A stretch of 62,690 nucleotides of DNA, counting the filler, from Actinomycetota bacterium (lineage in GTDB: Bacteria > Actinomycetota > CADDZG01 > JAHWKV01 > JAOPZY01), in NCBI GenBank assembly GCA_025963875.1. It is 5 parts of 5 records of this genome, joined end to end, with 100 filler letters (N's around TTAATTAATTAA, not from the genome) between each part and the next. Parts side by side here need not be neighbours in the genome. Positions count along the whole stretch, not along the records: positions 30,071 to 44,702 come from JAOPZY010000057.1; 4 more parts are not named here. One strand, 5' to 3'. The translations under genes and the position numbers were made by a program. The notes beneath the pieces were generated by a model. The model saw only the letters and a list, made by a program, of their open reading frames with translations, was not told the origin of the DNA and did not search any database. Of the stretch, positions 15,698 through 49,458 are shown piece after piece (the first letter of the stretch is position 1; the number at the start of each line of letters is the position of its first letter).

Positions 15698-15698
15698 C

Positions 15699-16250
15699 GT
15701 GACCATCGACGGCGACGGACGGGAGCGGGTGCACCGGGTCAAGCTTCCCAAGTCCGTGTCGTTCTTGCTCAACTGGAGCCGGAAGTACTCGCTGTGGATG
15801 TTCCAGTTCGGGCTGGCCTGCTGCTCCATCGAGTTCATCGCCTCCGCCATGCCGAAGCACGACATCATGCGCCTGGGGGTGATCCCCTTCCCTGCGTCGC
15901 CCCGGCAGGCGGACCTGATGGTCGTCGCGGGCACGGTCACCGACAAGATGGCGCCGGCGGTCAAGCGGGTCTACGAGCAGATGCCCGAGCCGAAGTACGT
16001 GATCTCGATGGGTTCGTGCTCCAACTGCGGCGGGCCGTACTGGGACTCCTACTGCGTGACCAAGGGGGTCGACCAGATCATCCCGGTGGACGTCTACGTC
16101 CCTGGATGCCCGCCCCGCCCCGAGGGGCTCCTCTACGGAATCGTTCGCCTGCAGAACAAGATCCAGAACGAGAACATACCGGAGAGGTGGAGTGGCCACG
16201 CCGCCAAGATCCCTCAGATCATGGGAACGGGTAGATCCGGAGGAATTTAG
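15699..16250 (+). CDS. nuoB: NADH-quinone oxidoreductase subunit B
   Basis: [18 protein letters not shown] and VPGCPPRPE. Confidence 0.95.
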
Positions 16251-16746
16251 CCGCCGGGTCGCCGGCAAGCTCGGCGACGCGGCGGCCTCGGTGGACGTGC
16301 GCAACGGCACGATCCACGTGACGCTCCCTGCCGGCGACGTTGTGGGTGCGGCGCGCGTCCTGAAGGAGGACCCTGAGCTCGACTGCGCCTACTTCAACTT
16401 CCTGTCCGCCGTCGACTGGGAGGCGGAGGGCTTCGAGGTGCTGGTGGCCCTCCACTCCCTCACCTACGGCAACACAGTCATCGCCCATGTCCGTCTGCCT
16501 GCGGAGAGCCCGTCCATGGCCAGCCTGACGGCGCTCTACGGCGGCGCCAACTGGCACGAGCGGGAGTGCGCCGAGATGTTCGGGATCGACTTCGACGGCC
16601 ACCCCAACCTCGTGAAGCTCTACCTGCCGGAAGACTTCGAGGGCTACCCGCTGCGCCGATCCTTCAAGCTGGCCAGCCGTCGGTACAAGGCCTGGCCCGG
16701 GGCGAAGGACGAGGAAGAGGCAGCCGCCGGAGGCCCGCTGCGATGA
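16192..16746 (+). CDS. nuoC: NADH-quinone oxidoreductase subunit C
   Basis: [25 protein letters not shown] and YPLRR; start uncertain. Confidence 0.92.
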
Positions 16747-16828
16747 GCTGGGCGACTTCTCCGGCCTTCTGTGAGTATTTTCTGGTGTATAGCACCAGGT
16801 TTTACTCACAGTTCGGGGTGCGGGCCTG

Positions 16829-17980
16829 ATGGGCACGGTCCCCGAGGACCTCACCCGGGTTCCCGACCTGTCCAGCACCGGAGGGCTCCATACCGAGGAG
16901 ATGGTCCTCAACGTCGGCCCCCAGCACCCCGCCACGCACGGGGTGCTCCGGGTGCTCGTCAGTGTCGACGGGGAGCGGATCGTCCGGGCGGAGCCCGTCA
17001 TCGGCTACATGCACCGGGGCCACGAGAAGCTGGTCGAGCAGCGGGACTTCCGCCAGATCACCAACCTCCTGTCCCGGATGGACTGGCTCTCGGGCATCAA
17101 CAACGAGATCCCCGCCTCCCTGGCCGTCGAGCGGATGCTCGAGCTCGAGGTGCCCCGCCGGGCGCAGTACCTGCGGGTCATCCTCGCCGAGCTCAACCGC
17201 ATCACCAACCACCTGATGTTCACCGGCTCCTTCGGCCTCGAGCTGGGGGCGACGACGCCGGTCATGTACGCCTTCCGCGAGCGGGAGCTCATCCAGGAGG
17301 CCCTCGAGCTGGTGACGGGGGGCCGGATGCATTTCGGCTTCATCCGCCCGGGTGGCCTCAAGGAGGACGTCCCGAGGGGTTTCGTCGAGCTGGCCCGCCG
17401 GGGCGTGCGCCAGCTCGTCGCCAAGATCCCCGACTACGAGAACCTCCTGATGGGCAACGAGATCTTCAAGCAGCGCACCGTCGGCGTCGGGCGCCTCGAC
17501 CCGGCCCTGGCCCTCGACCACGGGGTGTCCGGGCCGATCCTCCGGGCGTGCGGCATCCCCTACGACATCCGCAAGGTGGACCCCTACCTCGTCTACGACG
17601 AGTTCGAGTTCGACACCCCGCTCGGCGCCCAGGGCGACTCCTTCGACCGGTTCTGGGTGCTCGTGCAGGAGATGAAGGAGTCGGCCCGCATCGTCGAGCA
17701 GGCGCTCGACGGCCTGCCGGAGGGCTCCCACATCGGTGCCGTCCCCAAGCGGCTCACCCTCCCGAAGGGACAGATCTACTGCCACGCCGAGAACCCCCTC
17801 GGCGAGCTCGGCTACTACCTGGTCTCCGACGGCGGCAACAAGCCGTACCGGTTGAAGATCCGCACCCCGTCGTTCTCGAACATCAGCGTCGCCGCGCATA
17901 TGCTGCGCGGCGCCTTCGTGCCCGACATGATCGCAATCCTCGGCAGCATGTTCTTTGTCGTGGGGGACATCGACCGCTAA
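16829..17980 (+). CDS. nuoD: NADH-quinone oxidoreductase subunit D
   Basis: [31 protein letters not shown] and VVGDIDR. Confidence 0.95.
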
Positions 17981-18985
17981 ATGGTGACGACCCTTCACCA
18001 CATCCTCGCCAACAGCATCGTGCTCCTGGCGCTGAAGCTCGGCATCCTGCTGCTGCTGCTGCCGGCCACCCTCGTCGTGGGCTACGTGGAGCTCAAGGTG
18101 ATGGCCCACATGCAGCACCGGCTCGGACCGATGTACGCCGGCGCCTACCACGGCTGGGCGCAGACCCTTGCCGACGGCCTCAAGTTCATCCAGAAGGAAG
18201 ACATCATGGCCGCCGCCACCGACCGGACCGTCTTCTCGATGGTGCCCTACATCACGATGCTCGGTGCCGCTCTCACCTTTGTGGTGATCCCCTTCAGCCG
18301 GCATGGCGTGATCGCCAACCTGGACATCGGCCTGTTCTACGCCCTCGCCGTGTCGTCGATCAGCGTCATCGGCGTCCTGGCCGCCGGATGGGCGTCCGCC
18401 AACAAGTACTCCCTGATGGGCGGGCTGCGAGCGGCTGCCCAGCTCATCGCGTACGAGCTGCCCCTGGTGCTGGCCGCCGCCGCCGTGGCGATGCAGGCCG
18501 GGTCGCTCTCGCTCGTGAGCATCGCCGAGGCCCAGCGCTACGTACCGTTCGCCCTCTGGGCGCAGCCGCTCGGGTTCCTCATCTTCCTCGCCGCGGCCAC
18601 GGCCGAGGTGTCGAGGACACCCTTCGACATGCCCGTCGCCGAGGCCGAGATCATCACGGGAGCCTTCACCGAGTACTCGGCCATGAAGTTCGCCTTCGGC
18701 CTCTTCGCCGCCGAGTACATCGCCATGATCGGGATGTCGGCGCTTGCTGCCACCCTGTTCCTCGGCGGCTACGTCCCGCTGCTGCCGCAACTGCGGTTCG
18801 TGCCGGGGCCGGTGTGGTTCCTCATCAAGACGGGCCTTCTCATCTTCCTGCTGATCTGGATCCGGTGGACCTTCCCCCGATTGCGGGAGGATCAACTCCA
18901 GAAGTTCGCGTGGAAGGTGCTGATCCCGCTGTCGCTTGTCAACATCTTCGTCACCGGCGCGCTGAAACTGGCCCACTGGACGTAA
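17981..18985 (+). CDS. nuoH: NADH-quinone oxidoreductase subunit H
   Basis: [29 protein letters not shown] and PRLREDQL. Confidence 0.95.
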
Positions 18986-18996
18986 AGGGAGACCGG

Positions 18997-19968
18997 GTGA
19001 ACGACGAGTCGAAGCTCAAGAAAGCCACGTTCGGCACGGGGCTGCTCAAGGGGCTCGGGATCACCATGCGCCACATGGTGTCCAAGGCCGTGACGGTGCA
19101 GTACCCCGACGAGATCGCCCCGCTCCCGCCCCGCTCGCGCGGCGTCATCGCTCTGAAGGAAGAAAACTGCACCATGTGCATGCTCTGCGCCCGGGAGTGC
19201 CCGGACTGGTGCATCTACATCGAGGGCCACAAGGAGCGGCGGGAGTCCAGGGGCGAGGGCAAGCGGGCAAAGGCATTCAACGTGCTCGACCGCTTCGCCA
19301 TCGACTACGCCCTGTGCATGTACTGCGGCATCTGCGTGGAGGTCTGCCCCTACGACGCCCTGTTCTGGAGCCCGGAGTTCGAGTACGCCGAGGGGGACAT
19401 CACCCGCCTCACCCACGAGATGGAGCGCCTCGAGGACTGGATGCGCACGGTGCTCCCGCCCAGCCCCCTCGACGACGGCGCCAAGGGGCCGGAGATCAAG
19501 TCGGCAGCGCCGGTGGTCCCGGCCCCGGCCGCCGCGCCCGCGGCGGCCGCTCCGGCACCAGTCGAAACCGCCCCGGGGCCGCCCCCCGCGGCGGGGAGGC
19601 CGGCAGGGATGTCGGAGGCCGAGTTCGTCGAGCAACGAGCGGCGGCGGGGCGTCTGGTACGGCAGAAGGTGTACGAGGAGGAGATCGCCAAGGGCTCCGA
19701 ACCCCGGATCGCCGAGGCCAGGTCCAAGGCCGCAGAGATGCGGGCCAGGAAGGCCACGTTGCCGGAAACGGAGCCGGCCCCGCCTGTGACGCCTGCGCCG
19801 GCGCCATCCCGGCCGGCGGCCGGGATGTCCGCCGCCGACGCGGCAGCGGTGAGGCGGAAGGTGTACGAGGAGGAGATCGCCAAGGGCTCGGACCCCCGGA
19901 TCGCCGAGGCCAGGTCCAAGGCCGCAGAGCTGCGGGCCAGGAAGGGCACGAAGGGTCCCGGCGGCTAG
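18997..19968 (+). CDS. nuoI: NADH-quinone oxidoreductase subunit I with a long C-terminal extension
   Basis: [17 protein letters not shown] and [15 protein letters not shown] start after AAGGGAG; about 150 aa of extension with a duplicated module. Confidence 0.92.
19661..19945 (+). repeat. Two near-identical ~93-bp coding repeats in nuoI (period 192 nt)
   Basis: Units at about 19661-19753 and 19853-19945 encode [13 protein letters not shown](E/D)[12 protein letters not shown](M/L)RARK. Confidence 0.92.
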
Positions 19969-20001
19969 ACGAGACGGTGGTTGCCCGGAAAGGTGGGTGG
20001 G

Positions 20002-20487
20002 ATGCAGCAGGTGGTGTTCGGGATCGTGGCGGCGCTGATCGTCTTCGCCGCGGTCCGCCTCGTCACGACCCGCAACCTCGTCCACGGGGCCCTCTACCTG
20101 CTCGCGGTCCTCGCCGGAGCCGCGATCCTCTTCCTGCTGTTCCTTGCCGAGTTCGTCGCCTGGGTGCAGGTGCTGGTCTACATCGGCGCCGTCGTCGTGC
20201 TCCTGCTCTTCGGCCTCATGCTCACCCGTGCCCCCATCGGCAATATGGCCCTCGACAGCCAGACGCGGCCGCTTGCCGCGGTGGTCTCCCTCGCCATCTT
20301 CGGCATCACCTCGACCATCGTCTGGAAGACCTTCAAGGGCCAGACGGTCCACTTCTCGAAGCCCAACACCGTGGACACGCTCGGCCGGGCGATCTTCAGC
20401 CAGTACGTGCTGCCCTTCGAGATCGTCTCCGTGGTGCTGCTGGCCGCCCTCGTTGGCGCGGTGGTGCTCGCAAGGAAGGAGGAGTAG
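20002..20487 (+). CDS. nuoJ: NADH-quinone oxidoreductase subunit J
   Basis: AEFVAWVQVLVYIGAVVVL and YVLPFEIVS. Confidence 0.93.
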   Translation: MQQVVFGIVAALIVFAAVRLVTTRNLVHGALYLLAVLAGAAILFLLFLAEFVAWVQVLVYIGAVVVLLLFGLMLTRAPIGNMALDSQTRPLAAVVSLAIFGITSTIVWKTFKGQTVHFSKPNTVDTLGRAIFSQYVLPFEIVSVVLLAALVGAVVLARKEE

Positions 20488-20793
20488 GTGCCGGTCGCCT
20501 GGGTGCTCATCCTCTCCTCCTTCCTGTTCTCCGTCGGCATCTACGGGGTGCTGGCCCGGCGCAACGCCGTCCTGGTCCTGATGTCGATCGAGCTCATGCT
20601 CAACGCAGCCAACATCAACTTCGTTGTCTTCAACCTGCTGCTGCACTCGATCTCGTATATCGGGCAGGTCTTCGCCCTGTTCATCATCACCATCGCGGCG
20701 GCCGAGCTCGGCGTCGGGCTCGCGATCGTGATCCTCATCTTCCGGAACCGCTCGACGGTGTCGATCGACGAAGTGAGCCTGATGAAGTGGTAA
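20488..20793 (+). CDS. nuoK: NADH-quinone oxidoreductase subunit K
   Basis: LMSIELMLNA and AAAELGVGLAI. Confidence 0.95.
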   Translation: MPVAWVLILSSFLFSVGIYGVLARRNAVLVLMSIELMLNAANINFVVFNLLLHSISYIGQVFALFIITIAAAELGVGLAIVILIFRNRSTVSIDEVSLMKW

Positions 20794-20797
20794 TCCG

Positions 20798-22759
20798 TTG
20801 AGATCCGTCGCCTGGCTGATCCCCGTCTTCCCGCTGCTCGCCTTCTTCCTCATCGTCTTCTTCGGCAAGCGGATGCCACGCAAGGGCCACGAGATCGGCA
20901 TCCTGGCAATCGCCGCCTCGCTGGTCGTCGCCCTCGGCGTCTTCTTCCAGCAGATCGCGCACTCGGATCAGGTCTACGAACGGTCGGTGACGTGGTTCCG
21001 CTTCGGTGACGGCGGACGGTTCGTCGAGCTCGGCATGCACATCGACGGCCTGGCGGCGGTGATGTTCGTCGTCGTCTGCACCGTGTCGCTGCTCGTGCAG
21101 ATCTACTCCACCGAGTACATGCGCGACGACGTCCGCTACACCTGGTACTACGCCTGCCTGTCGCTGTTCACCGGCTCGATGCTGAACCTGGTCATCGCCA
21201 ACAACCTCATCCAGATGCTGATCGGGTGGGAGGGCGTCGGCGTGGCCTCGTACCTGCTCATCGGGCACTGGTTCGAGGAGCGGGCGAACTCGAACGCCGG
21301 CTTGAAGGCGTTCATCACCACCCGCATCGGCGACGTGGGCTTCATGTTCGGCATCTTCGTTCTGTTCTGGGCGGCCGGATCGTTCAACATCGCCCACATC
21401 ACGTCCGTCGTGGCCTCGGGTGGAGTCGCCAGGGGGACGCTCACCTGGGCGGCGATCCTTCTGTTCTGCGGCGCAATCGGCAAGTCGGCTCAGGTTCCCC
21501 TGCAGGTCTGGCTCCCCGACGCCATGGCCGGCCCCACGCCGGTATCCGCCCTCATCCATGCGGCCACCATGGTCGTGGCCGGCGTCTACCTCGTCGCGCG
21601 CATGTACGGGGTGTTCCATGCCTCGCCGGCGGCCCTCAACGAGGTGGCGATCATCGGGGCGATCACGATGGTGATGGCCGCCGGCCTGGCCCTGGTCCAG
21701 GACGACATCAAGAAGGTCCTGGCCTACTCGACGATCAGCCAGCTCGCCTACATGGTGGCGGCGCTGGGCGTCGGTGCCTACACGGCGAGCGTGTTCCACA
21801 TCTGGACCCATGCCTGGTTCAAGGCGCTGCTGTTCCTGGGGGCCGGGTCGGTCGCCCACGCCGTCCACTCGTTCTCCATGAACGACATGGGCGGGCTGCG
21901 AAAACAGATGCCGACCACGTTCAAGACCTACGTGATCGGGTCGCTGGCCCTGGCGGGCATCTTCCCCCTGGCCGGTTTCTGGTCGAAGGACGACATCATC
22001 AACGGCGCCTACCACTCGGCCCGGGCGGGCAGCTCCGTCGGCTGGTTCGTCTTCCTCGCAGCCCTGCTGACCGCGTTCCTCACCGCGGCCTACGTCGCTC
22101 GCATGGTCGCCCTGACGTTCTACGGCAAGCCGAGGTACGACCCGGAACACGTCCACCCCCACGAGTCGCCGAAGGCGATGACCATCCCGCTGGTGTTCCT
22201 GGCGTTCATGGCCATCTTCTCCGGGTTCCTCGGCCTGCCCGGCAAGCTCAACCTGTTCGCCGGCTGGGTCCGCTTCGGCGACGTGGAGCACTCCTTCAAC
22301 CTCGCCCTCGACGCTTTTTCCACGGTGCTGGCCTTGAGCGGCCTCTACCTGGGCTGGACCATCTTCAAGCTGCACAGAGTGAACATCGACCTGGCGAAGA
22401 GCCCGCTGGCGTGGTTCTACAAGCTCCTCCAGCGTCGCTACTACTTCGACGACCTGTACTTCAACGGGATCGTCCACCCCGTAGCGGGCCCCATCGCGCG
22501 GGCTGCCTACTGGACGAACCAGAAGATCCTCGACGCCGTCATCAACTTCGCCGGGACCGCCACCGTGGCGCTGGGAAGGTTCGTGTACCGGGACATCGAC
22601 CAGCAGATCATCGACGGGGGGGTCAACGGCCTCGCCCAGGGGGCGGGAGCGGCCGGCAACGGGCTCAAGTTCTGGCAAACCGGCAACGTGCAGATCTATG
22701 CAGCAGGTCTGTTCGTTGGCATAGCGGTCTTCGTAGGGGTCTTTCTGATCCGAGGCTGA
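20798..22759 (+). CDS. nuoL: NADH-quinone oxidoreductase subunit L
   Basis: GWEGVG, KSAQVPLQVWLPDAMAGPTPVSALIHAATMV and HAWFKALLFL. Confidence 0.96.
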   Translation: MRSVAWLIPVFPLLAFFLIVFFGKRMPRKGHEIGILAIAASLVVALGVFFQQIAHSDQVYERSVTWFRFGDGGRFVELGMHIDGLAAVMFVVVCTVSLLVQIYSTEYMRDDVRYTWYYACLSLFTGSMLNLVIANNLIQMLIGWEGVGVASYLLIGHWFEERANSNAGLKAFITTRIGDVGFMFGIFVLFWAAGSFNIAHITSVVASGGVARGTLTWAAILLFCGAIGKSAQVPLQVWLPDAMAGPTPVSALIHAATMVVAGVYLVARMYGVFHASPAALNEVAIIGAITMVMAAGLALVQDDIKKVLAYSTISQLAYMVAALGVGAYTASVFHIWTHAWFKALLFLGAGSVAHAVHSFSMNDMGGLRKQMPTTFKTYVIGSLALAGIFPLAGFWSKDDIINGAYHSARAGSSVGWFVFLAALLTAFLTAAYVARMVALTFYGKPRYDPEHVHPHESPKAMTIPLVFLAFMAIFSGFLGLPGKLNLFAGWVRFGDVEHSFNLALDAFSTVLALSGLYLGWTIFKLHRVNIDLAKSPLAWFYKLLQRRYYFDDLYFNGIVHPVAGPIARAAYWTNQKILDAVINFAGTATVALGRFVYRDIDQQIIDGGVNGLAQGAGAAGNGLKFWQTGNVQIYAAGLFVGIAVFVGVFLIRG

Positions 22760-22792
22760 AGGAACCGGGCTGAATGCAATCGAAAGGATGAG

Positions 22793-24316
22793 GTGCTAAT
22801 GGACTTCCTGGCTCACTGGGGGCTGACCCTGAGCGTGTTCCTGCCCATCGTGGGAGCAGCTCTCATCGCCTTCACCCCGAAGGAGCAGGAGAAGACGATC
22901 AAGTTCCTGTCCCTCGCCTTCACGTTCCTGCCCCTCGTCGTGGGCGTCCTGCTGCTGCGCGTGTACCACATCGGGATGACCGGGATGCAGCTCGAGACCA
23001 ACCGGTCGTGGATCCCCTCCATCGGCGCCCGGTACCACGTCGGCATCGACGGGATCAGCCTGCCGCTGCTCGAGCTGACGTTGCTCGTCACGTTCCTGTG
23101 CGCCATCTACTCGCTGAAATGGCTGCCCGAGCCCCACAACCCCAAAGGGTTCCTGGCGCTCATGCTCCTCCTCGAGACGGGCATGGCCGGCACCTTCATC
23201 GCCCTCGACCTCGTTCTGTTCTTCATCTTCTGGGAGCTGGTCCTGGTCCCGATGTACTTCATGATCGGTCTCTGGGGCGGCCCCCGCCGGGAGTACGCGG
23301 CGATCAAGTTCTTCCTCTACACCCTGTTCGGCAGCGTGTTCATGCTGCTGGGATTCCTCGCTCTCTATTTCCGGGCGAGCCCCCACACGTTCGACGTCCT
23401 GCAGCTCCAGCGGATCGGGCCGAGCCTGCCCTCGGGCATCCAGAACCTGATCTTCCTCGGCATGGGGATCGGGTTCGCGATCAAGGTCCCGATGTGGCCG
23501 TTCCACACCTGGCTCCCCGATGCCCACACCGAGGCTCCCACGGTCGGCAGCGTGTTGCTGGCCGCGATCCTCCTCAAGATGGGCACCTACGGGTTCCTCC
23601 GGATCTCGATCCCGATCATGCCGCACGCCGCCCGCACCTACGCCCCCCTGATCGGCGCCCTGGCGGTCATCGCCATCGTGTACGCGGCCCTCAACTGCCT
23701 CGCGCAGACCGACCTCAAGCGCTTGATCGCCTTCAGCTCGGTGGGCCACATGGGCTTCGTGATGCTCGGCATCGCGACGCTCACCCAGATCGGGGTCAAC
23801 GCCGCGGTCTTCGGCATGGTGGCCCACGGCGTCATCACCGGGATGCTGTTCTTCATAGCCGGGTCGATCCACGAGCGCTACCACACCCGGGAGATCCCCC
23901 AGCTCGGCGGGATGGCGCTGCGATTGCCCATCCTGGGCGGCCTCCTGGCCTTCACCGCCATCGCCTCGCTGGGCCTCCCCGGCCTGGCAGGGTTCTGGGG
24001 TGAGGTGCTCGCCCTGCTCAGCTCCTACAACCCGCTGTCGGCGCTCTCCAGCCACACGTTCCGCGTCTACATGGTCGCCGGCGGCATCGGGACGGTGCTG
24101 ACCGCCGGCTACCTCCTGTGGATGATCCAGCGGGTGAACCTCGGCAAGGTCCCCGCGCAGTGGGAGGGCAAGAAGCTGGTCGACGTCCAGCCGCTCGAGA
24201 TGGTGGCCTGGGCGCCCCTGCTCCTCCTCACCTTGGGCCTCGGCCTGTTCCCCCGCCTCATCTTCGACGTGACGACGCACTCGGTCATCGGGCTGACGAA
24301 GCTCCTCGGAGGCTGA
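22793..24316 (+). CDS. nuoM: NADH-quinone oxidoreductase subunit M
   Basis: FFIFWE, IKVPMWPFHTWLPDAHTEAPT and LKMGTYG. Confidence 0.96.
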   Translation: MLMDFLAHWGLTLSVFLPIVGAALIAFTPKEQEKTIKFLSLAFTFLPLVVGVLLLRVYHIGMTGMQLETNRSWIPSIGARYHVGIDGISLPLLELTLLVTFLCAIYSLKWLPEPHNPKGFLALMLLLETGMAGTFIALDLVLFFIFWELVLVPMYFMIGLWGGPRREYAAIKFFLYTLFGSVFMLLGFLALYFRASPHTFDVLQLQRIGPSLPSGIQNLIFLGMGIGFAIKVPMWPFHTWLPDAHTEAPTVGSVLLAAILLKMGTYGFLRISIPIMPHAARTYAPLIGALAVIAIVYAALNCLAQTDLKRLIAFSSVGHMGFVMLGIATLTQIGVNAAVFGMVAHGVITGMLFFIAGSIHERYHTREIPQLGGMALRLPILGGLLAFTAIASLGLPGLAGFWGEVLALLSSYNPLSALSSHTFRVYMVAGGIGTVLTAGYLLWMIQRVNLGKVPAQWEGKKLVDVQPLEMVAWAPLLLLTLGLGLFPRLIFDVTTHSVIGLTKLLGG

Positions 24317-24324
24317 CGCAACGC

Positions 24325-25773
24325 ATGCAGATCGATTACGCCGCCGTCGCCCCCGAGCTGGTCCTCACCGGCGCGCTCTGCATTGTGCTCGTGGTCGACC
24401 TCGTGCTGCCGGACAACCGCAAGGGCCTCATCATGCCGGTGTCGCTGCTCGGGGTGGCCGGGACGCTGCTGGCGCTCCTGGCCCTGGCCGGCGACCCGAC
24501 CCGGACGACCCTTGGCGGGATGTTTGTGGTCGACTCCTTCGCCGTCACCCTCAAGATCCTGTTCTGCGTCGCCGCCCTCCTCACGCTCGCGATGTCCTAC
24601 GACTACCTCCGGAAGGAGGGGATCCATCAGGGCGAGTTCTACTTCCTGCTCCTGTGCTCCCTGCTGGGGATGCTCACGATCGCCTCCAGCCGGGACCTGC
24701 TGCCGATCTTCGTGTCCCTCGAGCTGGTGTCGGTGCCGGCGTTCGTGCTGGCGGGGCTCCAGAAGATCGATGTGAAGTCCAACGAGGCGGCCCTCAAGTT
24801 CTTCCTCTTCAGCATCCTCTCCACCGCCGTGATGCTCTTCGGCATGTCCCTGATCTACGGGATCACCGGGACGACGAACCTCGCCGAGATCGCCGTCCGC
24901 CTCGCCGCCACCCCCGTGCTGCGCTCGATCGCCGTGCTGTCGGTCTTCTTCGTCGTCGTCGGCTTCGGCTTCAAGATCTCGGCGTTCCCGTTCCAGTGGT
25001 GGGTGCCGGACACCTACGAGGGGTCACCCGTGCCGGTGGCCGCCTTCCTCTCGGTGGCCTCGAAGACCGCCGGGTTCGTCGGGCTGCTGCAGATCATGTT
25101 CATCGCCTTCCACGGCCTCGCCGACGTCTGGCGGCCCTTCATCGCCGCCGTGGCGATCCTCACGATGACCTTCGGCAACCTCGTGGCCCTCACCCAGCGC
25201 CACATCGTGCGGCTGCTCGCCTACTCGTCGATCGGCCAGGCCGGCTACATCCTGCTGCCGCTGGCGGTCGTGAACGTCAACGGGGGGTCGGTCAACCACG
25301 AGGCCTTCGCCGCCTCGATCGCCTACCTCCTCATCTACGCCTTCATGGAGATGGGGGCGTTCTCGGTGGCGGTGGCCTACGGCCGCGAGGGGGGCTACTT
25401 CATCGACGACTACGCGGGCCTGGGCTACCGGGCCCCCGGCCTCGCCGTCGTGATGACGGTGTTCCTGTTCTCGCTCGCCGGGATCCCGCCGCTGGCGGGC
25501 TGGGCCGCCAAGCTCTTCATCTTCCGGGCGGTGATCGACGGCCACGAGTACTGGCTGGCCGTGGCGATGGCCGTCAACACGGTGATCGCGCTCTTCTACT
25601 ACGCCAAGGTCGTCCGCAGGATGTTCTTCGAGCCCGCCGGCGACGGGCCGTTGGGCGTCAAGGTGCCGCTGCTCCTCCAGGCCACGATCGCCGTCTCGAC
25701 GGTCATGGTCCTCTTGGTCGGCATCCTCCCCGACCTGGCAGCCCACCTGGCGAGGATGTCGACGCTCGTCTGA
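24325..25773 (+). CDS. nuoN: NADH-quinone oxidoreductase subunit N, second copy
   Basis: FKISAFPFQWWVPDTYEGSP, RLLAYSSIGQAG and SLAGIPPLAGW. Confidence 0.95.
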   Translation: MQIDYAAVAPELVLTGALCIVLVVDLVLPDNRKGLIMPVSLLGVAGTLLALLALAGDPTRTTLGGMFVVDSFAVTLKILFCVAALLTLAMSYDYLRKEGIHQGEFYFLLLCSLLGMLTIASSRDLLPIFVSLELVSVPAFVLAGLQKIDVKSNEAALKFFLFSILSTAVMLFGMSLIYGITGTTNLAEIAVRLAATPVLRSIAVLSVFFVVVGFGFKISAFPFQWWVPDTYEGSPVPVAAFLSVASKTAGFVGLLQIMFIAFHGLADVWRPFIAAVAILTMTFGNLVALTQRHIVRLLAYSSIGQAGYILLPLAVVNVNGGSVNHEAFAASIAYLLIYAFMEMGAFSVAVAYGREGGYFIDDYAGLGYRAPGLAVVMTVFLFSLAGIPPLAGWAAKLFIFRAVIDGHEYWLAVAMAVNTVIALFYYAKVVRRMFFEPAGDGPLGVKVPLLLQATIAVSTVMVLLVGILPDLAAHLARMSTLV

Positions 25774-25854: not shown

Positions 25855-26829
25855 GTGTCGCAGAAGATCGCCGACGAAAAAAAGAAGAGCTGCTACAAGC
25901 ATGCATCCCGCGAGACCAGCCTTGCCTGCGGCCGCTGCGGGCGACCCATCTGCTGGGAGTGCCTCGTCGATGCCCCGGTGGGTTTCCAGTGCCGCAAGTG
26001 CACGGGGCAGAAATCCAAGCCATCCGGCGCAGTCCGGAAGGTGCACCGACGTAATCGTCTCAAGCGGGGGCTCGTCAAGGTCGCCAAGACCCTCGTTGTG
26101 CTGGCACTCGTCGCCAGCGCAACCGTGGTCTACATCAGGACGCAGCGGACTGCTCCGGCCCCCGACGCCGGCGGCGCCGCGGCCGTTGCCACGGCGCCGA
26201 TCCCCGGTCCCGCCGAGGACCCGGCCGGCTTCAGGTTCCTGGAGGTCGACGCCCGCACCGGCCAGCCGCTCCGGTTCAACCCCTGCCGGACCATCGAGTA
26301 CGTCGTCAACGTGGAAGGGGCGCCGGCAGGGGGCCTGAGCGCGGTGAACGCCGCGGTCGACCAGATCAGCAAGGCCACCGGGATCGCGTTCGTCTCCGCG
26401 GGCATCACCTCCGAGAGGGGACTCGCCGATCGCCAGAACTACCAGCCGAACTACTACGGGGACAAGTGGGCCCCCATCCTCATCGGATGGCTCCCGCTCG
26501 GGCAGGGGGCCGGCGCCGGCCACGGCTTTGCCGGAGTGGGCGGCCCGTCCCGCCCCGTGCCGTCCGGCAACACCTGGGTCTACGTGTCCGGCAAGGTGCT
26601 GATGAACTCCGACGACAAGGTGCCCCCGGCGTTCATCCAGGGCGTCGTCATGCACGAGCTGGGCCATGTCCTCGGCCTCGACCACGTCACGAGCGCTGGC
26701 AACGTCATGAACCCCGCCGGCAACATGGTGCCCAACCAGCCCTGGGGGTCTGGCGACCTGGCCGGCCTGCAGAAGGTCGGGAAGGCCGCCGGCTGTCTCG
26801 GGGAGCCCAAGCCAAGCGCAACGTCGTAA
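25855..26829 (+). CDS. Membrane-anchored matrixin-like metalloprotease with an N-terminal B-box-like Zn finger
   Basis: CYKH..CGRCGRPICWEC..GFQCRKC, one TM helix, HELGHVLGLDH plus Met-turn VMNP. Confidence 0.85.
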   Translation: MSQKIADEKKKSCYKHASRETSLACGRCGRPICWECLVDAPVGFQCRKCTGQKSKPSGAVRKVHRRNRLKRGLVKVAKTLVVLALVASATVVYIRTQRTAPAPDAGGAAAVATAPIPGPAEDPAGFRFLEVDARTGQPLRFNPCRTIEYVVNVEGAPAGGLSAVNAAVDQISKATGIAFVSAGITSERGLADRQNYQPNYYGDKWAPILIGWLPLGQGAGAGHGFAGVGGPSRPVPSGNTWVYVSGKVLMNSDDKVPPAFIQGVVMHELGHVLGLDHVTSAGNVMNPAGNMVPNQPWGSGDLAGLQKVGKAAGCLGEPKPSATS

Positions 26830-27845: not shown

Positions 27846-27982
27846 CGGGTGCGCTGTCGAGGTTCGAAGCGATGAGTAACCAGCCCATACCCCCCGGAGC
27901 CCCGCCGCGCGAGTGCGGCCCGAGGGCATCTTACATGGGTGTCGGCATCCGGTTGCCAGCGCTGCGCGCCGCCCGGTAGCAT

Positions 27983-28048
27983 GGCGCCGCTCAAGGCGCC
28001 GGATAAAGGCCCGAGGTGTCTTTCAAGGCGCCGGATAAGGAGAAGAGG
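27983..28048 (+). repeat. Two copies of the dispersed motif TCAAGGCGCCGGAT
   Basis: tcaaggcgccggataa at 27991-28006 and 28023-28038; related copies at 673-707 and 31607-31628 on the minus strand. Confidence 0.8.
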
Positions 28049-28052
28049 GAGC

Positions 28053-29306
28053 ATGGCCAGCGTCCGCACGTGCCTGCTCGCCGCCACCGCCGCCACTGCG
28101 GCGCTCTTCGTCACGCTCGCTGCGCCACCCGTCGAGGCGCAGCTCATTCCCTTCCCCACCCCGCTCCTCCCCGGCCTGGTCGGGCCGTCGCCGTCGGCAG
28201 CCCCCGCCCCGGCCGCTCCCGCGGCTTCCGCGCCGGCGAAGGCTCCTACGCCGGGGGCACGGGCGAAACCATCCGGGAACGCCCCAGCGAACGCCCCGCA
28301 GAACACCAGGGCATCGTCGTCCTCGAAGAAGTCCCCGTCGGTCCAGGCAGCCACATCGGCCGGCTCCGGTCCGGCGCGTGCCCCCTCCTTCATCCGCACC
28401 GGCCCGGCCTCCACGGCCGGGCTCATCACCGACATCGCCCCGCTCGTCGGCGACGGGATGGCGTCCCGTGATGCCCTGATCCTGGCCGGGCCGCCCTTCC
28501 CCGTTGCGGGAATGGCAAAGTACTCCGACGACTTCCTGACGCCCCGGCTCACCCCCGTTCCGCACCTGCACCAGGGAACGGACGTCTTCGCCGACTTCGG
28601 CACCCCGATCGTGGGCTCGGGGCCCGGCAGAGTCACGCAGCGGGACAATACCCCTGACGCCGGGGGTCTCGAGATGTGGGTGGCGGGCGACGACGGCGTC
28701 AACTACTACTACGCCCATCTCCTCTCCTTCTCCGAGGCCGCGCGGGTGGGGCGGACGGTGACGGCCGGCACGATCCTCGGCTACGTCGGCAACACCGGCG
28801 ACGCCTCGGAGGGGCCGCCGCACCTGCACTTCGAGATCCACCCGCCGGGGTCGGGCCGGGACAAGGTGCTCGCCGCCGGGGTGCCGATCACGGGGATCGT
28901 CGCCTCGTCATCGGGCTCGATCAATCCCAAGCCAATCCTCGACGCCTGGCTGGCCCAGGCCGAGCAGCACGCCATCGCCATGGCCGCCAAGTCGGCCGCC
29001 AAGCCCGGTCTCGCTGGCGCACCGCCCGACCTCACCCTGTCGGGGCGCAGCGGCAACCCCGCCGAGCTGGTCTGGTTCAGCGTGTTCCAGCCGTCGCTCG
29101 GCTCGCTCGGCCTCGCCCTCCAGGCGGCGCACGCCGCGGGGACGGTGGATGAGAAGGCGACATCCTCGGAGGCTGCGTCGGCCGATGTTCAGCGCAGGGC
29201 CGAGATCGGTCTGGCGGTTCGGACGCCCTACGTGCACTTGGGCGACCTCGCCGGCAACGGCTCGGGCTCCGCCATGGACCAGCTGATCGGGGCCGGCTCC
29301 CCCTAG
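28053..29306 (+). CDS. Secreted M23 family peptidase
   Basis: Signal peptide, Pro/Ala linker, HQGTD, YYAHL and PHLHFEI. Confidence 0.88.
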   Translation: MASVRTCLLAATAATAALFVTLAAPPVEAQLIPFPTPLLPGLVGPSPSAAPAPAAPAASAPAKAPTPGARAKPSGNAPANAPQNTRASSSSKKSPSVQAATSAGSGPARAPSFIRTGPASTAGLITDIAPLVGDGMASRDALILAGPPFPVAGMAKYSDDFLTPRLTPVPHLHQGTDVFADFGTPIVGSGPGRVTQRDNTPDAGGLEMWVAGDDGVNYYYAHLLSFSEAARVGRTVTAGTILGYVGNTGDASEGPPHLHFEIHPPGSGRDKVLAAGVPITGIVASSSGSINPKPILDAWLAQAEQHAIAMAAKSAAKPGLAGAPPDLTLSGRSGNPAELVWFSVFQPSLGSLGLALQAAHAAGTVDEKATSSEAASADVQRRAEIGLAVRTPYVHLGDLAGNGSGSAMDQLIGAGSP

Positions 29307-29887: not shown

Positions 29888-29969
29888 GGTGGGATACCCA
29901 AGTGGCCAAAGGGAGCGGTCTGTAAAATCGTTGGCTCAGCCTTCGAAGGTTCGAATCCTTCTCCCACCA
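29888..29969 (+). tRNA. tRNA-Tyr(GTA)
   Basis: GGTGGGA/TCCCACC acceptor stem, CTGTAAA anticodon loop, long variable arm, GGTTCGAATCC T-loop. Confidence 0.95.
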
Positions 29970-29970
29970 C

Positions 29971-30070
29971 NNNNNNNNNNNNNNNNNNNNNNNNNNNNNN
30001 NNNNNNNNNNNNNNTTAATTAATTAANNNNNNNNNNNNNNNNNNNNNNNNNNNNNNNNNNNNNNNNNNNN
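29971..30070. other. Artificial contig spacer
   Basis: N run with TTAATTAATTAA. Confidence 0.99.
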
Positions 30071-33060: not shown

Positions 33061-33141
33061 TCCACCCCATCTTGACTCCCGGCAGCAAGACCGGCATAGT
33101 CCATGTGTGACCGGCATCCCCTGAGTGAAGGAGGGCTGGCA

Positions 33142-33363
33142 ATGAAGCTCGTCGAGATAGCGGCGTCGACCTGTGGAGGAGGCCCGAGCTGTCCCACCGT
33201 GCATGCCACGGACCGCGGCACCATCGCCGTGCAGGGCTACGTCATCGATGACCCCGAGGCCCTTTCGGTGCTCGAACTGCCCCCGGGCGAGGGAGTCGTC
33301 GAGATCCCTGTTGCCCTCCTACTGGCCAGCGCCGCCTCAGTTTCTCGGCAGGTTCCACAGTGA
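33142..33363 (+). CDS. Small Cys-motif protein of actinobacterial XRE/DUF6879 modules
   Basis: CGGGPSCPTV..TDRGT..VQGY..GEGVVEIP; AAGGAGG SD; overlaps the next gene. Confidence 0.8.
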   Translation: MKLVEIAASTCGGGPSCPTVHATDRGTIAVQGYVIDDPEALSVLELPPGEGVVEIPVALLLASAASVSRQVPQ

Positions 33364-33896
33364 CTGTCGACGACCTCCTGGACCTCTGTCGCTCCTTCGA
33401 GCGATCGGCATTTCGGCTCGAGACGCTCGACCGGTACAGCGTGAGCGAGGAGGACGAGGACAACCAGCGGTGGAGCCGCGGAGAGGCTCCACCGCCGATC
33501 GACGGGCATCCGTGGTTCGACGGCGTCATCCGGGCAGGGACGTCGGCTGGCAAACGTTGGGAACGGACGCACGTGCTCCGGCTGCCCCTCACCGACTACC
33601 TCCGTTTCGAGCTGGAGTACGAGTACGCCCGTCTCGAGCAGGCGGGTGACCACTGCCACATTCTCGAAGTTCCTGATGGCTATCCTCTGCCCGTGCCCGC
33701 CGTCGACTTCTGGCTGTTCGACGACACCCTGGCCGTCCGGATGGATTACGACTCGGATGGCCACCTTTTGGCATGCGAGCAGATCACCGACGCTGCCACG
33801 GTGGGCGAGTTTCTTCGGACTCGTGACACGGCGCTGTCCCTGGCCATACCCTTTCCCACGTGGCTGACGGAGGCGGAGGAGGCGGGGCGCCTGTAG
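33360..33896 (+). CDS. DUF6879-like protein
   Basis: SAFRLETLDRY, PLTDYLRFE and DFWLFDD. Confidence 0.8.
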   Translation: MTVDDLLDLCRSFERSAFRLETLDRYSVSEEDEDNQRWSRGEAPPPIDGHPWFDGVIRAGTSAGKRWERTHVLRLPLTDYLRFELEYEYARLEQAGDHCHILEVPDGYPLPVPAVDFWLFDDTLAVRMDYDSDGHLLACEQITDAATVGEFLRTRDTALSLAIPFPTWLTEAEEAGRL

Positions 33897-33898
33897 CC

Positions 33899-34726
33899 GT
33901 GCCGGAGGGAGGGGACCTCGGTCAGGCTCTACGCATCCTTCGAGCAGACAAGGGCCTGACTGCCGCCGAGCTCGCGGAACGGGTGGGCGTCACGCAGACG
34001 GCCATCTCCCGGTATGAGCTAGGAACACGACGGCCCTCCCATGAGACGCTGGAGAGGATCGCCGATGCTCTCGGCGCCTCGAAGCGCGTGAAACAGAAGC
34101 TCGTGGACCAGCTCCACGGCGAGCAGATCGAGCTACAGAGCATCCGGGCCATCGCGCGACGCGGCCTGCGCCGGCGTCAGGAGGAGATCGCACGCGTCGA
34201 AGCGAAGACCAGGCACCTTCGCAACTTCCAGGCTGCGGTCATCCCTGGCCTCCTGCAGACGCCGGGTTACGCCCGGAGGATGTTCGAAGAAGTCGGTCTC
34301 GATACGCACACCCAGGATGTGGGCCGGGCCCTTGCGGTGCGCCTCGACCGTCAGGCGATCCTCCACGATCCCAAGCGGCGCTTCGGATTCGTGATCACGG
34401 AGGCCGTGCTGCTCTGGCCCCGGGAGGGGGTTCCCGAGATGCTGGCTCAGCTCGACCGGCTCCAGGTGGTCTCGGAGCTCCCGACCGTGGACCTTGCCAT
34501 CCTTCCCCTGGGGATCACGCCCCCGTACAGTCCTATCAACTCCTTCGACATCTACGACGACAAGCTGGTGCTGATCGAGACTCTCACCGAGCAGCTTGCC
34601 GTCCGGGACTCTTCGGATGTCGCCTCGTATGTCGGGGCATACGAGGCCTTCCGGCAGTCGGCGCTCTCGGGACCCGACGCCCGAAGGCTGTTCGAATCGG
34701 TAGCCGCCCGCCTGCGAGGGCTCTGA
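33899..34726 (+). CDS. XRE-family HTH regulator with a DUF5753 domain
   Basis: LRADKGLTAAELAERVGVTQTAISRYELG; IPGLLQTPGYA and FVITEAVL. Confidence 0.9.
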   Translation: MPEGGDLGQALRILRADKGLTAAELAERVGVTQTAISRYELGTRRPSHETLERIADALGASKRVKQKLVDQLHGEQIELQSIRAIARRGLRRRQEEIARVEAKTRHLRNFQAAVIPGLLQTPGYARRMFEEVGLDTHTQDVGRALAVRLDRQAILHDPKRRFGFVITEAVLLWPREGVPEMLAQLDRLQVVSELPTVDLAILPLGITPPYSPINSFDIYDDKLVLIETLTEQLAVRDSSDVASYVGAYEAFRQSALSGPDARRLFESVAARLRGL

Positions 34727-34783
34727 GAGAGTGCCCATGTCACTGGCCCAGACCATCCCATGCCACTCTGGACCTGCGTTACT

Positions 34784-34810
34784 GGTATCAACCGGTATAT
34801 TGCGGTATAG
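34784..34810 (+). promoter_or_regulatory. Three GGTAT direct repeats at 10-bp period overlapping a TATAGT -10-like box
   Basis: GGTAT at 34784, 34794 and 34804 in an AT-rich patch upstream of the small ORF. Confidence 0.45.
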
Positions 34811-34882
34811 TTGGCTCTCAGTTCGTCCCCACAGCTCATCCAGGGAACAGTCGTCCGTTGTCCACAGCAAGGAGGCAGTCAG

Positions 34883-35092
34883 ATGCCCTTTTCGAGATTT
34901 GCCGGAGGCGATCAGCTCGCAGACCCCGACCTCCACGAGCACGGCCGTCCGTTTACCGCCTTGAAGAGAGGCACTACCAAGTGCTGCTCCACGGGCACCT
35001 GCGATTACGCACCCTCCCGGACCGTCCCTGCGGAACGCACTGATCCAAGGGACCCTGCGCTCCTCGCCAGGGCGCTTGGCAGCCTCGGTTAG
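34883..35092 (+). CDS. Putative RiPP precursor peptide (69 aa, internal TTKCCSTGTC core)
   Basis: AAGGAGG SD at 34869-34875; stop lies 4 nt before the GNAT start; Thr/Ser/Cys cluster; upstream of a LanM-type dehydratase. Confidence 0.65.
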   Translation: MPFSRFAGGDQLADPDLHEHGRPFTALKRGTTKCCSTGTCDYAPSRTVPAERTDPRDPALLARALGSLG

Positions 35093-35096
35093 CGGC

Positions 35097-35561
35097 ATGG
35101 ACCGCGATTCCGGACGGCCAGTTGGGGTGACCACTGCCGCCAATTCGCGAGAGCGGCCCTTCCTCGTGGTGGTCGGGAAGAGGCCCGAGGCAGCAGACGT
35201 CATCGCACTCTACGACGCCGTTGGCTGGGGTGAGGCTGACGACTACGACGAGGACAGCATTCGATCTGCGCTCGCCAATACCTTGTGCATCATTCATGCG
35301 ACGGATCCCGACGGGAGGCTCATCGGTTTCGCCAGGCTCTTCGGCGACGGCATCTTCCACACGTCGCTCGCAGAGATCGTCGTGCATCCCAACTGGCAAC
35401 GGAAGGGAGTTGGAGCCGCATTGCTCGCCGAGGCTTGTGAGCTGTGCGCCGGTACCTCGATCTTCCTGGAGACGTTCCGGGGCCAGGAGCCCTTCTTCGA
35501 GAGCTGCGGCTTCTCCGTCAAGAGCCATATGGTCGTCATGTCGCGGCGCCGACAAAGCTGA
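35097..35561 (+). CDS. GNAT family N-acyltransferase
   Basis: LIGFARL, VVHPNWQRKGVG (motif A) and FFESCGF. Confidence 0.9.
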   Translation: MDRDSGRPVGVTTAANSRERPFLVVVGKRPEAADVIALYDAVGWGEADDYDEDSIRSALANTLCIIHATDPDGRLIGFARLFGDGIFHTSLAEIVVHPNWQRKGVGAALLAEACELCAGTSIFLETFRGQEPFFESCGFSVKSHMVVMSRRRQS

Positions 35562-35588
35562 GATCCCGAAGCGGCCACGTCACGGAGA

Positions 35589-37139
35589 ATGGTCGTCCCG
35601 GATGCCTACAGAGCTCAACTGTACTTTCGCCGGTTACGGCTCGGCATCCAGGACGTAGCCACAACCCTGACCGAGCTGGGTCTCGGGCCACAGGAGGTCG
35701 ATACCTCCATCGAAGGCCTTGAGCGTCGGCTGGCCGCCGAACTGGATTCCATCATTCTTCCCACCGTCGCATTCGAGCTTGCGATCGCCAGGCAGTTGGT
35801 CCTCCTGAGGGGAAAGACCCCCGGCCAGAGGTACGAGTCGTTCTTCGTGAGCGATCGCGGCTGGCAGCCTTGGGTCCGCTCGATCCTGCTCCGGTACCGG
35901 TTTCTGGACGAGGCCATCGGTTCGTACGTCACCACGACAGTCGCTGCCGTCCAGGAAGCCCTGGAGAGGTTGCGCCGAGACCTCGGCGGCATTCGACGGA
36001 CCCTTCTGAGAAGCAATGAGCACCGATTGATCGGCGTTGGTGTGGCAGAGGGAGCGGATCGCCACAGGGACGGGCGGCGAGTGCTGTGGTTTAGATTCAA
36101 TCGGGGAGCGACGGTGGTGTACAAGCCGATCGACCTCGGCACCTACCTTCTCTTCGATCGCTTCGTCCGATGGCTCGATCTCGACGCTGAACACGCCTGC
36201 TATCTCCCGCGTGTCCTTCCCAGGGATGGCTACGGGTGGATGGAGTTTGTTCCGCATGTCGGTTGCCGGAGTAATGCCGACATCAAGGCGTTCTTCCTTC
36301 GAGCCGGCATCCTCCTCGCCGCTGCAGAGTCACTCAATCTTGCCGACGCCCACGCCGGCAATCTCGTGGCGAGGGGCCCCTTCCCGGTCATCGTCGATCA
36401 GGAGGCTCTGCTGCATAACCACTCCCTGGCTTCCGCACAAGACCAGCCGGATATCTTCACCACGCTCATCGTGCAGCATCTACCACCGGAGGGTTCGCCC
36501 TTCGGCGTCGCGGCCGGCCTCATGTGCCCTCCAGTTCCTCAGCTCAACCGGTTCGCCGCCGTCGCCGATGACGAGAGGACCGATACGCTCTCCGTACGCT
36601 TCGGGCGCCCCAGCCAGAGAGGTCCAGTCCATCTCCCCAGGCTGGGCAACGAACACGTGACGGTCCACGATTATGTCGATGACGTTGTTGCGGGGTACAG
36701 GACCGGCTACGAGATCATCTCGGATGGACTGCGCACGGAGCAGGGACCAGCGGGGTGGCCACGGGCCGCTGCCCAGGTTCGGCCCCGCATCATCGTGCGA
36801 TCCACCATGTACTACGCCCACCTGATGTGCCTACTGGAACAGCCGGAGATACTGACCTCCCGGCAGAACGCCGAGGCAACGCTGCGAACGCAGCTGTCCC
36901 AGACGGGCAAATACTGGGAATGGGAGATTCCGGCCCTGCTGCACCATGACATCCCGTATTTCTTTCACGCGCCAGGTGAACGACATCTCTACGGATCGGC
37001 CTCTGAACGGGAGGAGAACCTGTTTCCCGTCTCCGCCATCGAGTATCTGAAAAGTCGTTGGAGGCGACGTTCCCGGACCCGTCGAGACGACAACTGCGAC
37101 CTGTTGCGGGAGCTTCTTCCGCTCAGCCCACGGCCATGA
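35589..37139 (+). CDS. Stand-alone LanM-type dehydratase domain (DUF4135), no cyclase domain
   Basis: DRH, VVYKP, YGWMEFV, DAHAGN, DQE, RIIVRST and DIPYF; ends at 516 aa. Confidence 0.87.
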   Translation: MVVPDAYRAQLYFRRLRLGIQDVATTLTELGLGPQEVDTSIEGLERRLAAELDSIILPTVAFELAIARQLVLLRGKTPGQRYESFFVSDRGWQPWVRSILLRYRFLDEAIGSYVTTTVAAVQEALERLRRDLGGIRRTLLRSNEHRLIGVGVAEGADRHRDGRRVLWFRFNRGATVVYKPIDLGTYLLFDRFVRWLDLDAEHACYLPRVLPRDGYGWMEFVPHVGCRSNADIKAFFLRAGILLAAAESLNLADAHAGNLVARGPFPVIVDQEALLHNHSLASAQDQPDIFTTLIVQHLPPEGSPFGVAAGLMCPPVPQLNRFAAVADDERTDTLSVRFGRPSQRGPVHLPRLGNEHVTVHDYVDDVVAGYRTGYEIISDGLRTEQGPAGWPRAAAQVRPRIIVRSTMYYAHLMCLLEQPEILTSRQNAEATLRTQLSQTGKYWEWEIPALLHHDIPYFFHAPGERHLYGSASEREENLFPVSAIEYLKSRWRRRSRTRRDDNCDLLRELLPLSPRP

Positions 37140-44702: not shown

Positions 44703-44802
44703 NNNNNNNNNNNNNNNNNNNNNNNNNNNNNNNNNNNNNNNNNNNNTTAATTAATTAANNNNNNNNNNNNNNNNNNNNNNNNNNNNNNNNNNNNNNNNNN
44801 NN
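44703..44802. other. Artificial contig spacer
   Basis: N run with TTAATTAATTAA. Confidence 0.99.
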
Positions 44803-49358: not shown

Positions 49359-49458
49359 NNNNNNNNNNNNNNNNNNNNNNNNNNNNNNNNNNNNNNNNNN
49401 NNTTAATTAATTAANNNNNNNNNNNNNNNNNNNNNNNNNNNNNNNNNNNNNNNNNNNN
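49359..49458. other. Artificial contig spacer
   Basis: N run with TTAATTAATTAA. Confidence 0.99.

Follow-up and report, generated by a model that had tools for sequence, protein, structure and literature searches.

A candidate three-gene RiPP-type cassette encoding a conserved Cys/Thr-rich peptide, a GNAT and a LanM-type enzyme without a cyclase domain

The window analysed here is a 62.7-kb chromosomal stretch (GC about 66%) of an Actinomycetota bacterium (GCA_025963875.1) from a soil metagenome. Within positions 34883-37139, three genes are encoded on the plus strand, namely an open reading frame (ORF) of 69 amino acids (aa), a GCN5-related N-acetyltransferase (GNAT) of 154 aa and a protein of 516 aa which contains only the LanM-type domain DUF4135. 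Gene architecture, conservation, intact catalytic residues and the fold of the enzyme were established. On balance, the cassette probably represents a compact operon for a ribosomally made, post-translationally modified peptide (RiPP), in which the peptide would be dehydrated by the DUF4135 enzyme, its cysteines possibly form thioethers without LanC and the GNAT possibly acylates a lysine. An earlier interpretation made from the DNA alone, referred to as the sequence-only reading, had proposed such a minimal system and was partly supported.

For the 516-aa protein, the sole Pfam match was PF13575 (DUF4135, E 7e-64), and no LANC_like domain (PF05147) was identified. The LanM model TIGR03897 was matched over positions 28-517 of 932 with 257.9 bits, compared to a cut-off of 304, and in a HMMER alignment the protein ends at about the domain boundary of CylM. 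The LanM motifs listed in the sequence-only reading are all present in order (D157-x-H159, Y178-K179-P180, D253-x-H255-x-x-N258, D270-x-E272, R400...T406 and D454-I-P-Y-F458), and its statement that the protein stops before any LanC-type cyclase was borne out. For CylM, the residues needed for phosphorylation and elimination have been described (PMC4550811). By the alignment, D157 and H159 correspond to CylM D252 and H254 (P-loop, elimination), K179 to K274, which activates the γ-phosphate of ATP, D253, H255 and N258 to D347, H349 and N352 (catalysis for Asp and His, metal ligand for Asn), D270 to the metal ligand D364, and R400 and T406 to R506 and T512 (elimination). Both the kinase and the elimination residues are therefore intact; all nine are invariant in the close family, and in a 60-row clade described below each of them is found in 57-60 rows. 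The AlphaFold model of the protein (predicted local distance difference test, pLDDT, 93.9) was most similar to LicM2 and CylM, with template modelling (TM) scores of 0.77 and 0.74, and PI3-kinases followed next. Because the nine residues are conserved and the modelled fold matches that of LicM2 and CylM, the enzyme should both phosphorylate and eliminate. Excised LanM dehydratase domains were reported to suffice for dehydration (PMC10676384).

As judged from its relatives, the protein is not a truncated LanM. A word-index search identified relatives with 99, 83, 83, 68, 65 and 46% identity, all of which are DUF4135-only proteins of 515-518 aa aligned end to end, so that the close homologues at 46-83% identity are not full-length LanMs. 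When 1.84 billion cluster representatives were searched with a profile, 8936 matches were obtained. The top 48 rows were all at most 586 aa long, and the first full-length LanM (1062 aa) was found only afterwards; in full-length LanMs, the match begins 100-190 residues into the protein. A FastTree tree of 109 rows was calculated from the window protein, 62 proteins of 470-600 aa, six stand-alone proteins from collected loci and 40 of 81 full-length LanMs shortened to 720 residues; it excludes fragments and the 99% twin, its midpoint root is not rigorous and several long branches were flagged. Here, a clade of 60 rows consisting of stand-alone proteins only was obtained with an SH-like (Shimodaira-Hasegawa-like) support of 99. 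The window protein lies inside this clade and forms a fully supported subgroup with five close relatives. On reference genome contigs, the relatives were LanMs only (25-33% identity), seven of eight in stop-to-stop frames of 928-1177 aa and one running off its contig. Among 401 sampled genomes of G001's phylum, matches were found in six, each within an open frame of 915-1911 aa and none stand-alone. In viral contigs, relatives of neither the enzyme nor the peptide were found.

The 69-aa ORF lies behind a Shine-Dalgarno-like AAGGAGG and reads as given in the sequence-only reading, including its count of five Ser/Thr (T31, T32, S36, T37 and T39) and three Cys (C34, C35 and C40) in residues 31-40. 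Since relatives were identified at E values of 1e-14 to 1e-40 in a search of 5.8 billion proteins, the small ORF is more than a chance frame. The protein searches yielded 7 and then 18 peptide clusters, and these 18 distinct sequences align with a fixed start, an identity of 41-88% and a length of 69-74 aa, except for three rows of 82-84 aa with later stops. T31, K33, C34, C35, G38, T39 and C40 are invariant in 18/18 rows, position 37 is Thr or Ser in all rows and D41 is present in 17/18, which gives the consensus core T-x-K-C-C-x-(T/S)-G-T-C-(D); the variant TTKCCASGTC is found in peptide P0187. Every peptide of the alignment contains exactly three Cys, each one inside the core, and K33 is the sole Lys in 9/18. 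Averaged over the columns, identity reaches 0.94 in the core, compared to 0.64 in the N-terminal flank, 0.51 in the linker and 0.73 in the C-terminal flank, a profile that fits the internal core with leader- and follower-like flanks that had been suggested. In the C-terminal segment, L61, A62, G66 and L68 are invariant, and at E51, D54 and L65 no more than one of the 18 rows deviates; from this conservation, the segment is a possible recognition ('follower') element.

No match to Pfam or NCBIfam, or to any known leader family there, was obtained for any of eight peptides scanned, and the best score in an ESM Atlas search with the peptide (0.80) was at chance level. The predicted monomer has no confident fold (mean pLDDT 55), with a short helix at residues 58-64 only, and a prediction of the complex of peptide and DUF4135 protein gave an uninformative score of 0.02. 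The small ORF is a real gene as judged from its conservation, although its codon statistics alone are weak. The locus was found near-identical in soil sequencing runs of 13 studies, and no RNA run was listed among the 20 runs found to carry it. In four soil runs in which population variants were assessed, the ORF varied at three sites only (D57G, D57E and L60F), too few for a test of selection; all are outside the core, for which no variant was seen. Two other frames were rejected. An ORF on the opposite strand (34133-35203) overlaps the HTH gene, for which there is Pfam support, and lacks conservation in the second context described below, and a TTG start at 34811, giving a 93-aa version, disagrees with the homologues, which all begin at the M-x-F-S position.

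The GNAT gene starts 4 nucleotides (nt) after the peptide gene (stop ending at 35092, ATG at 35097), as had been stated, and is separated from the DUF4135 gene by 27 nt. Its product was matched above the Pfam cut-offs by PF13508 (Acetyltransf_7), PF00583 (Acetyltransf_1) and PF13673 (Acetyltransf_10); NCBIfam matches were far under cut-off, and the closest solved structure is 2atr, an uncharacterised GNAT. The acyl-CoA-binding motif of GNATs, Q/R-x-x-G-x-G/A, is present as QRKGVGA in the window protein.

The same gene order, peptide-GNAT-DUF4135, was identified with tight spacing on a 1.7-kb contig from another metagenome (L009). The identity to the window is 65% for the DUF4135 protein, 69% over 133 aa for the GNAT, in which the acyl-CoA-binding motif reads QRRGVGR, and 50% for the peptide. 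Among 35 loci, tblastn gave significant matches to peptide (8.5e-16) and GNAT (4.5e-62) in L009 only, and a scan of the collected loci for the core motif likewise returned only the window and L009. The peptide and GNAT genes lie 4 nt apart in the window and overlap in L009, which suggests that they are translationally coupled. A type II toxin-antitoxin pair of the GNAT/ribbon-helix-helix (RHH) type was considered and rejected: the upstream peptide is Cys/Thr-rich, has no Pfam (RHH/DUF1778) match and no confident fold, and the pair has no PADLOC match.

The pathway proposed for the cassette, including every chemical step, the acceptor, the final product and its role, is predicted from sequence and by analogy. 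The 69-aa peptide would be the substrate, with its conserved N- and C-terminal flanks presumably used for enzyme recognition around a core of 10-11 residues. The DUF4135 enzyme would bind a conserved flank and use ATP to phosphorylate T31, T/S37 and T39, and T32 and S36 where present. Elimination of phosphate would then leave dehydrobutyrine (Dhb) and dehydroalanine (Dha) residues in the core, to which C34, C35 and C40 might add to give a very tight knot with up to three thioethers of the (methyl)lanthionine type. The three invariant hydroxyl residues, which lie beside three invariant thiols, match the requirements of a product with three rings. In the absence of LanC, the addition could be spontaneous, templated by the dehydratase or aided by a factor whose gene lies elsewhere. 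Of all steps, that of ring formation is the least secure, because no cyclase is in sight. The GNAT would most likely acylate the invariant Lys33, or else an amino terminus. Its likeness to enzymes acylating Lys or Orn is circumstantial, being based on K33 as an invariant and often sole lysine.

Several observations weigh against this pathway. Dhb reacts poorly in spontaneous Michael additions, which makes thioethers formed without a cyclase uncertain, and the lack of a nearby protease or exporter is unusual for a secreted RiPP. The small ORF has GC contents of 0.61/0.61/0.71 at codon positions 1/2/3 and weak codon statistics, and its codons differ from those of L009 by 34 non-synonymous and 10 synonymous changes. 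Linkage to the GNAT is shown in two independent DNA contexts only, and the other members of the cyclase-less clade that were inspected have no GNAT. On a contig of 41% GC (L010:5794-9999), a 68-aa ORF without the K-C-C core ends exactly at the start of a 501-aa DUF4135 gene of the 60-row clade, which is followed by an overlapping ATP-binding cassette (ABC) transporter gene and a sulfotransferase gene, again without a GNAT. On plasmid p226 of Bacillus mycoides (NZ_CP036001.1, 4663-7881), a clade-type cyclase-less DUF4135 protein of 537 aa with all nine catalytic residues, whose best BLAST matches are clade members, is preceded by a gene for a 46-aa peptide with a Cys/Ser/Thr-rich C-terminus and followed by one for an aminotransferase dependent on pyridoxal phosphate; no GNAT gene is present. 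This cassette differs from the one in the window, and as an isolate the strain offers a cultivable way into the clade. Finally, GNAT genes were reported near 198 of 1412 class II lanthipeptide clusters (14%) with an unexplained role (PMC12715929), so that proximity alone is weak evidence.

A further-reaching version of the proposed pathway, which we regard as rather unlikely, holds that the product is a tiny, tightly cross-linked, Lys-acylated peptide with LanC-independent thioethers, that it serves as a conserved physiological factor instead of a variable antibiotic, and that the clade of about 60 clusters is a separate, undescribed branch of peptide-modifying enzymes. A physiological factor is suggested because the core is conserved above its flanks and no exporter or protease accompanies it; candidate roles would be a metal- or redox-active cofactor-like peptide, an intracellular signal or a defence molecule.

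Among the alternatives, the one that survives best, with a low chance of being correct, accepts peptide and DUF4135 enzyme as a RiPP pair and assigns the GNAT to self-protection, to another substrate or to a toxin-like module. The over-representation of GNATs without assigned role near class II lanthipeptide clusters (PMC12715929; PMC13509491), the generic character of the window GNAT, as seen from its uncharacterised best solved relative and its low NCBIfam matches, and the clade members without a GNAT are consistent with it. However, the coupling of the GNAT and peptide genes has been kept while the proteins diverged to 50-69% identity, the core contains an invariant Lys, and PADLOC, run on the three cassette proteins, returned no match to defence systems or toxins.

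It is improbable that the enzyme only phosphorylates the core Thr/Ser and that a phosphopeptide, perhaps acetylated, is the end product, as described for phospeptin. The intact kinase residues would allow it, and the cyclase-less LanM-like enzyme EmbM was reported to give a diphosphorylated peptide (PMC9505594). In the same article, however, EmbM is described to lack the elimination residues and its substrate to be free of Cys, whereas the equivalents of CylM D252, H254, R506 and T512 are present and conserved in the window enzyme, and the peptide family has three invariant Cys. The loss of elimination residues is also visible where it occurs, since in a metagenome relative with an EmbM-like context (L014) the Asp and His of the P-loop are replaced by Thr and Pro.

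Given as little credit is the view that the cassette is not a RiPP operon at all, with the Cys-rich protein acting as a metal-binding or regulatory factor, the DUF4135 protein as a kinase for another substrate and their adjacency reflecting co-regulation. No leader family was recognised and no protease or exporter lies nearby, conservation of a core above its flanks is unusual for antibiotic RiPPs, and some other cyclase-less DUF4135 proteins adjoin Ser/Thr protein kinases. Yet the hydroxyl and thiol residues of the invariant block are of the kind used by the LanM domain and found in its product, the functions of DUF4135 domains cited here all concern ribosomal peptides (PMC4550811, PMC9505594, PMC10676384), and the peptide alone has no confident fold.

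A decayed class II lanthipeptide locus, in which a LanM lost its cyclase half beside chance ORFs, would agree with LanM as the best family match, although under cut-off, and with the full-length LanMs found as relatives in reference genomes, but is refuted as far as sequence allows by an enzyme length held at 515-518 aa down to 46% identity, the large clade of stand-alone proteins only, the conserved catalytic residues and small ORF, the near-identity of the locus in soil runs of several studies, and a convergent sugar-pathway gene in place of a LanC remnant downstream of the enzyme gene.

The features of the cassette and of the region upstream are compiled in Table 1.

Table 1. Positions of the cassette features and of the upstream genes in the window.
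Feature	Position	Strand	Basis or remark
DUF6879 gene	33360..33896	+	Pfam match; upstream of the peptide gene
Helix-turn-helix (HTH)/DUF5753 regulator gene	33860..34726	+	Pfam match; upstream of the peptide gene
Shine-Dalgarno-like AAGGAGG	34869..34875	+	ATG of the peptide gene 7 nt further on; also kept in L009, whose upstream DNA diverges
Precursor-like peptide gene, 69 aa	34883..35092	+	ORF, 18 distinct homologues and conservation in L009
Core motif T-T-K-C-C-S-T-G-T-C-D, residues 31-41	34973..35005	+	18-row alignment
Conserved C-terminal segment E-x-x-D-x-x-D-P-x-x-L-A-x-x-L-G-S-L-G, residues 51-69	35033..35089	+	18-row alignment
GNAT acyl/acetyltransferase gene, 154 aa	35097..35561	+	Pfam matches above cut-off
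Cyclase-less LanM-type kinase/lyase ('dehydratase') gene, 516 aa	35589..37139	+	DUF4135 only; CylM residue mapping; model; clade placement

It is uncertain whether the DUF6879 and HTH/DUF5753 genes are members of the cassette. They lie on the same strand and share its lowered GC content at third codon positions (GC3), which is 0.79-0.80 in their region; the contig L009 has only 55 nt upstream of the peptide gene and stops short of the corresponding region. The whole block at 33103-37139, which comprises an 86-aa ORF without Pfam match, the DUF6879 and HTH/DUF5753 genes and the three cassette genes, has a GC3 of 0.71-0.80, compared to about 0.9 in the flanking genes. Because its GC3 is below that of the flanks, there are hints of an acquired island. 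A repeat search gave no convincing flanking or boundary repeats around the block, and a scan for promoters and terminators yielded no signal exceeding that expected from shuffling. From 37214 on, a convergent sugar cluster encodes a hexapeptide transferase, two DegT aminotransferases, a PglD-like protein, an epimerase and a GFO oxidoreductase. The earlier remark that no protease, transporter or cyclase lies nearby agrees with the Pfam scan of the predicted window genes, in which no protease or exporter gene was found close to the cassette and no LanC-like domain anywhere (a few short predicted ORFs were outside the scan). The nearest peptidases, an M23 peptidase at 27939-29303 and a matrixin-like one at 25855-26826, and the nearest ABC transporter at 57714-60160 lie in unrelated gene surroundings, 6-20 kb off.

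Elsewhere, the window contains cox and molybdenum cofactor (Moco) genes, a nuo operon, an F420H2-dependent reductase and further sugar-pathway genes. The F420 enzyme and the DUF5753/DUF6879 pair suggest an Actinomycetota-like character. For the nuo-like operon at 15317-25770, Pfam identified the subunits A, B, C, D, H, J, K, L, M and N; from D to H, where 18985-19980 was outside the Pfam scan, genes for E, F or G were not seen. A 91-nt tRNA-Arg called by ARAGORN at 16510-16600 lies inside the NuoC-like coding region 16192-16743 and is probably a false positive. Window genes are interrupted by N stretches at 13573-13672, 29971-30070, 44703-44802 and 49359-49458, each consisting of two runs of 44 N that are 12 bases apart; the second stretch abuts a tRNA-Tyr at 29888-29970.

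Cyclase-less DUF4135 proteins were also identified in other gene contexts. Another conserved arrangement on one strand is present in L011:4796-9443, L012:14-4069, L027:4796-9450 and L029:4817-9469, with an ORF of about 310 aa without Pfam match (cut to 132 aa by the contig end in L012), a DUF4135-only gene and a gene for a Ser/Thr protein kinase with tetratricopeptide repeats (733-799 aa). These DUF4135 proteins have 476-567 aa, are 27-33% identical to that of the window and nest among full-length LanMs, outside the 60-row clade. In L014:5962-7506, a DUF4135-only protein of 515 aa is encoded, in which besides the altered P-loop the Thr for elimination is replaced by Ser; the match figures of L015 are identical. 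A glutamine amidotransferase and a histidine kinase are encoded near it, a context similar to that reported for EmbM and phospeptin (PMC9505594).

The manner in which dehydration is coupled to cyclisation defines the classes of lanthipeptides, and here a large, coherent clade of LanM-type dehydratases was found without a cyclase. In the cassette of the window, the predicted substrate of such a cyclase-free dehydratase has three invariant Cys, which adjoin three invariant hydroxyl residues. Should thioethers be formed, the cassette would exemplify lanthionine formation in nature that is independent of a cyclase or templated by the dehydratase, and with its three genes the system is small enough for reconstitution in E. 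coli; otherwise, a new type of dehydro or Cys-rich peptide would result. The peptide family has so far been found almost only in soil metagenomes, and because the cassette has no cyclase, cluster-mining rules that require one would miss it.

In the literature, no description of a cassette of peptide, GNAT and cyclase-less DUF4135 protein was found (supplements were outside the search), and searches with the core motif strings matched only primer-like DNA strings. Compared to the LanMs CylM (PDB 5dzt) and LicM2 (PDB 6st5), the window enzyme shares the lipid-kinase-like dehydratase fold (TM 0.74-0.77), the nine catalytic residues and, as predicted, a Ser/Thr/Cys-rich ribosomal peptide as substrate. 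It differs by the absence of the LanC-like zinc cyclase half and of about 100-190 N-terminal residues of full-length LanMs, and its peptide has no recognised leader family, an internal core (residues 31-41 of 69) and a conserved C-terminal tail. The misfit to standard class II lanthipeptides noted in the sequence-only reading agrees with these differences.

Closer in domain composition is PoyF of the polytheonamide pathway, a LanM-type dehydratase without cyclisation domain, which introduces a dehydro residue into a ribosomal peptide (PMC9505594) and could be compared by description only; the window enzyme likewise consists of DUF4135 alone and has kept the elimination residues. NstG from nostatin A biosynthesis is also LanM-like, with a predicted role in Ser/Thr dehydration (PMC11583998). 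Both belong to large clusters with NHLP-type precursors and many other enzymes, whereas the cassette consists of three genes, among them one for a GNAT, and its novel precursor has three invariant Cys. The window peptide matches neither NHLP nor Nif11 leaders, and its neighbours are the GNAT, an HTH regulator and sugar-pathway genes in place of radical S-adenosylmethionine (SAM)/epimerase companions. EmbM of the phospeptin system resembles the window enzyme as a cyclase-less LanM-like protein in a minimal cluster of precursor and enzyme, but stops at phosphorylation, and its precursor has a Nif11-type leader (PMC9505594).

For the GNAT, nostolysamides (NpuM and NpuN) and phaeornamide (PhaM and PhaN) provide the nearest parallels, with a LanM-type enzyme and a GNAT in one cluster; an invariant core Lys is present in the window family. 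NpuN was reported to acylate Lys1 of a class II lanthipeptide (PMC13060382) and PhaN a selidamide, phaeornamide (PMC9505594); the acceptors in these systems are Lys or Orn side chains. In contrast to the window cassette, they comprise LanMs complete with cyclase domains, precursors of the Nif11/NHLP type and transporters dedicated to them. With the PoyF, EmbM and NstG enzymes and acylation by NpuN and PhaN already known, the cassette is less isolated than the sequence-only reading had held. What is new is the combination of an all-cyclase-less clade, a precursor family in which an invariant Cys/Thr core lies internally and the tail is conserved, and a coupled GNAT, with nothing else.

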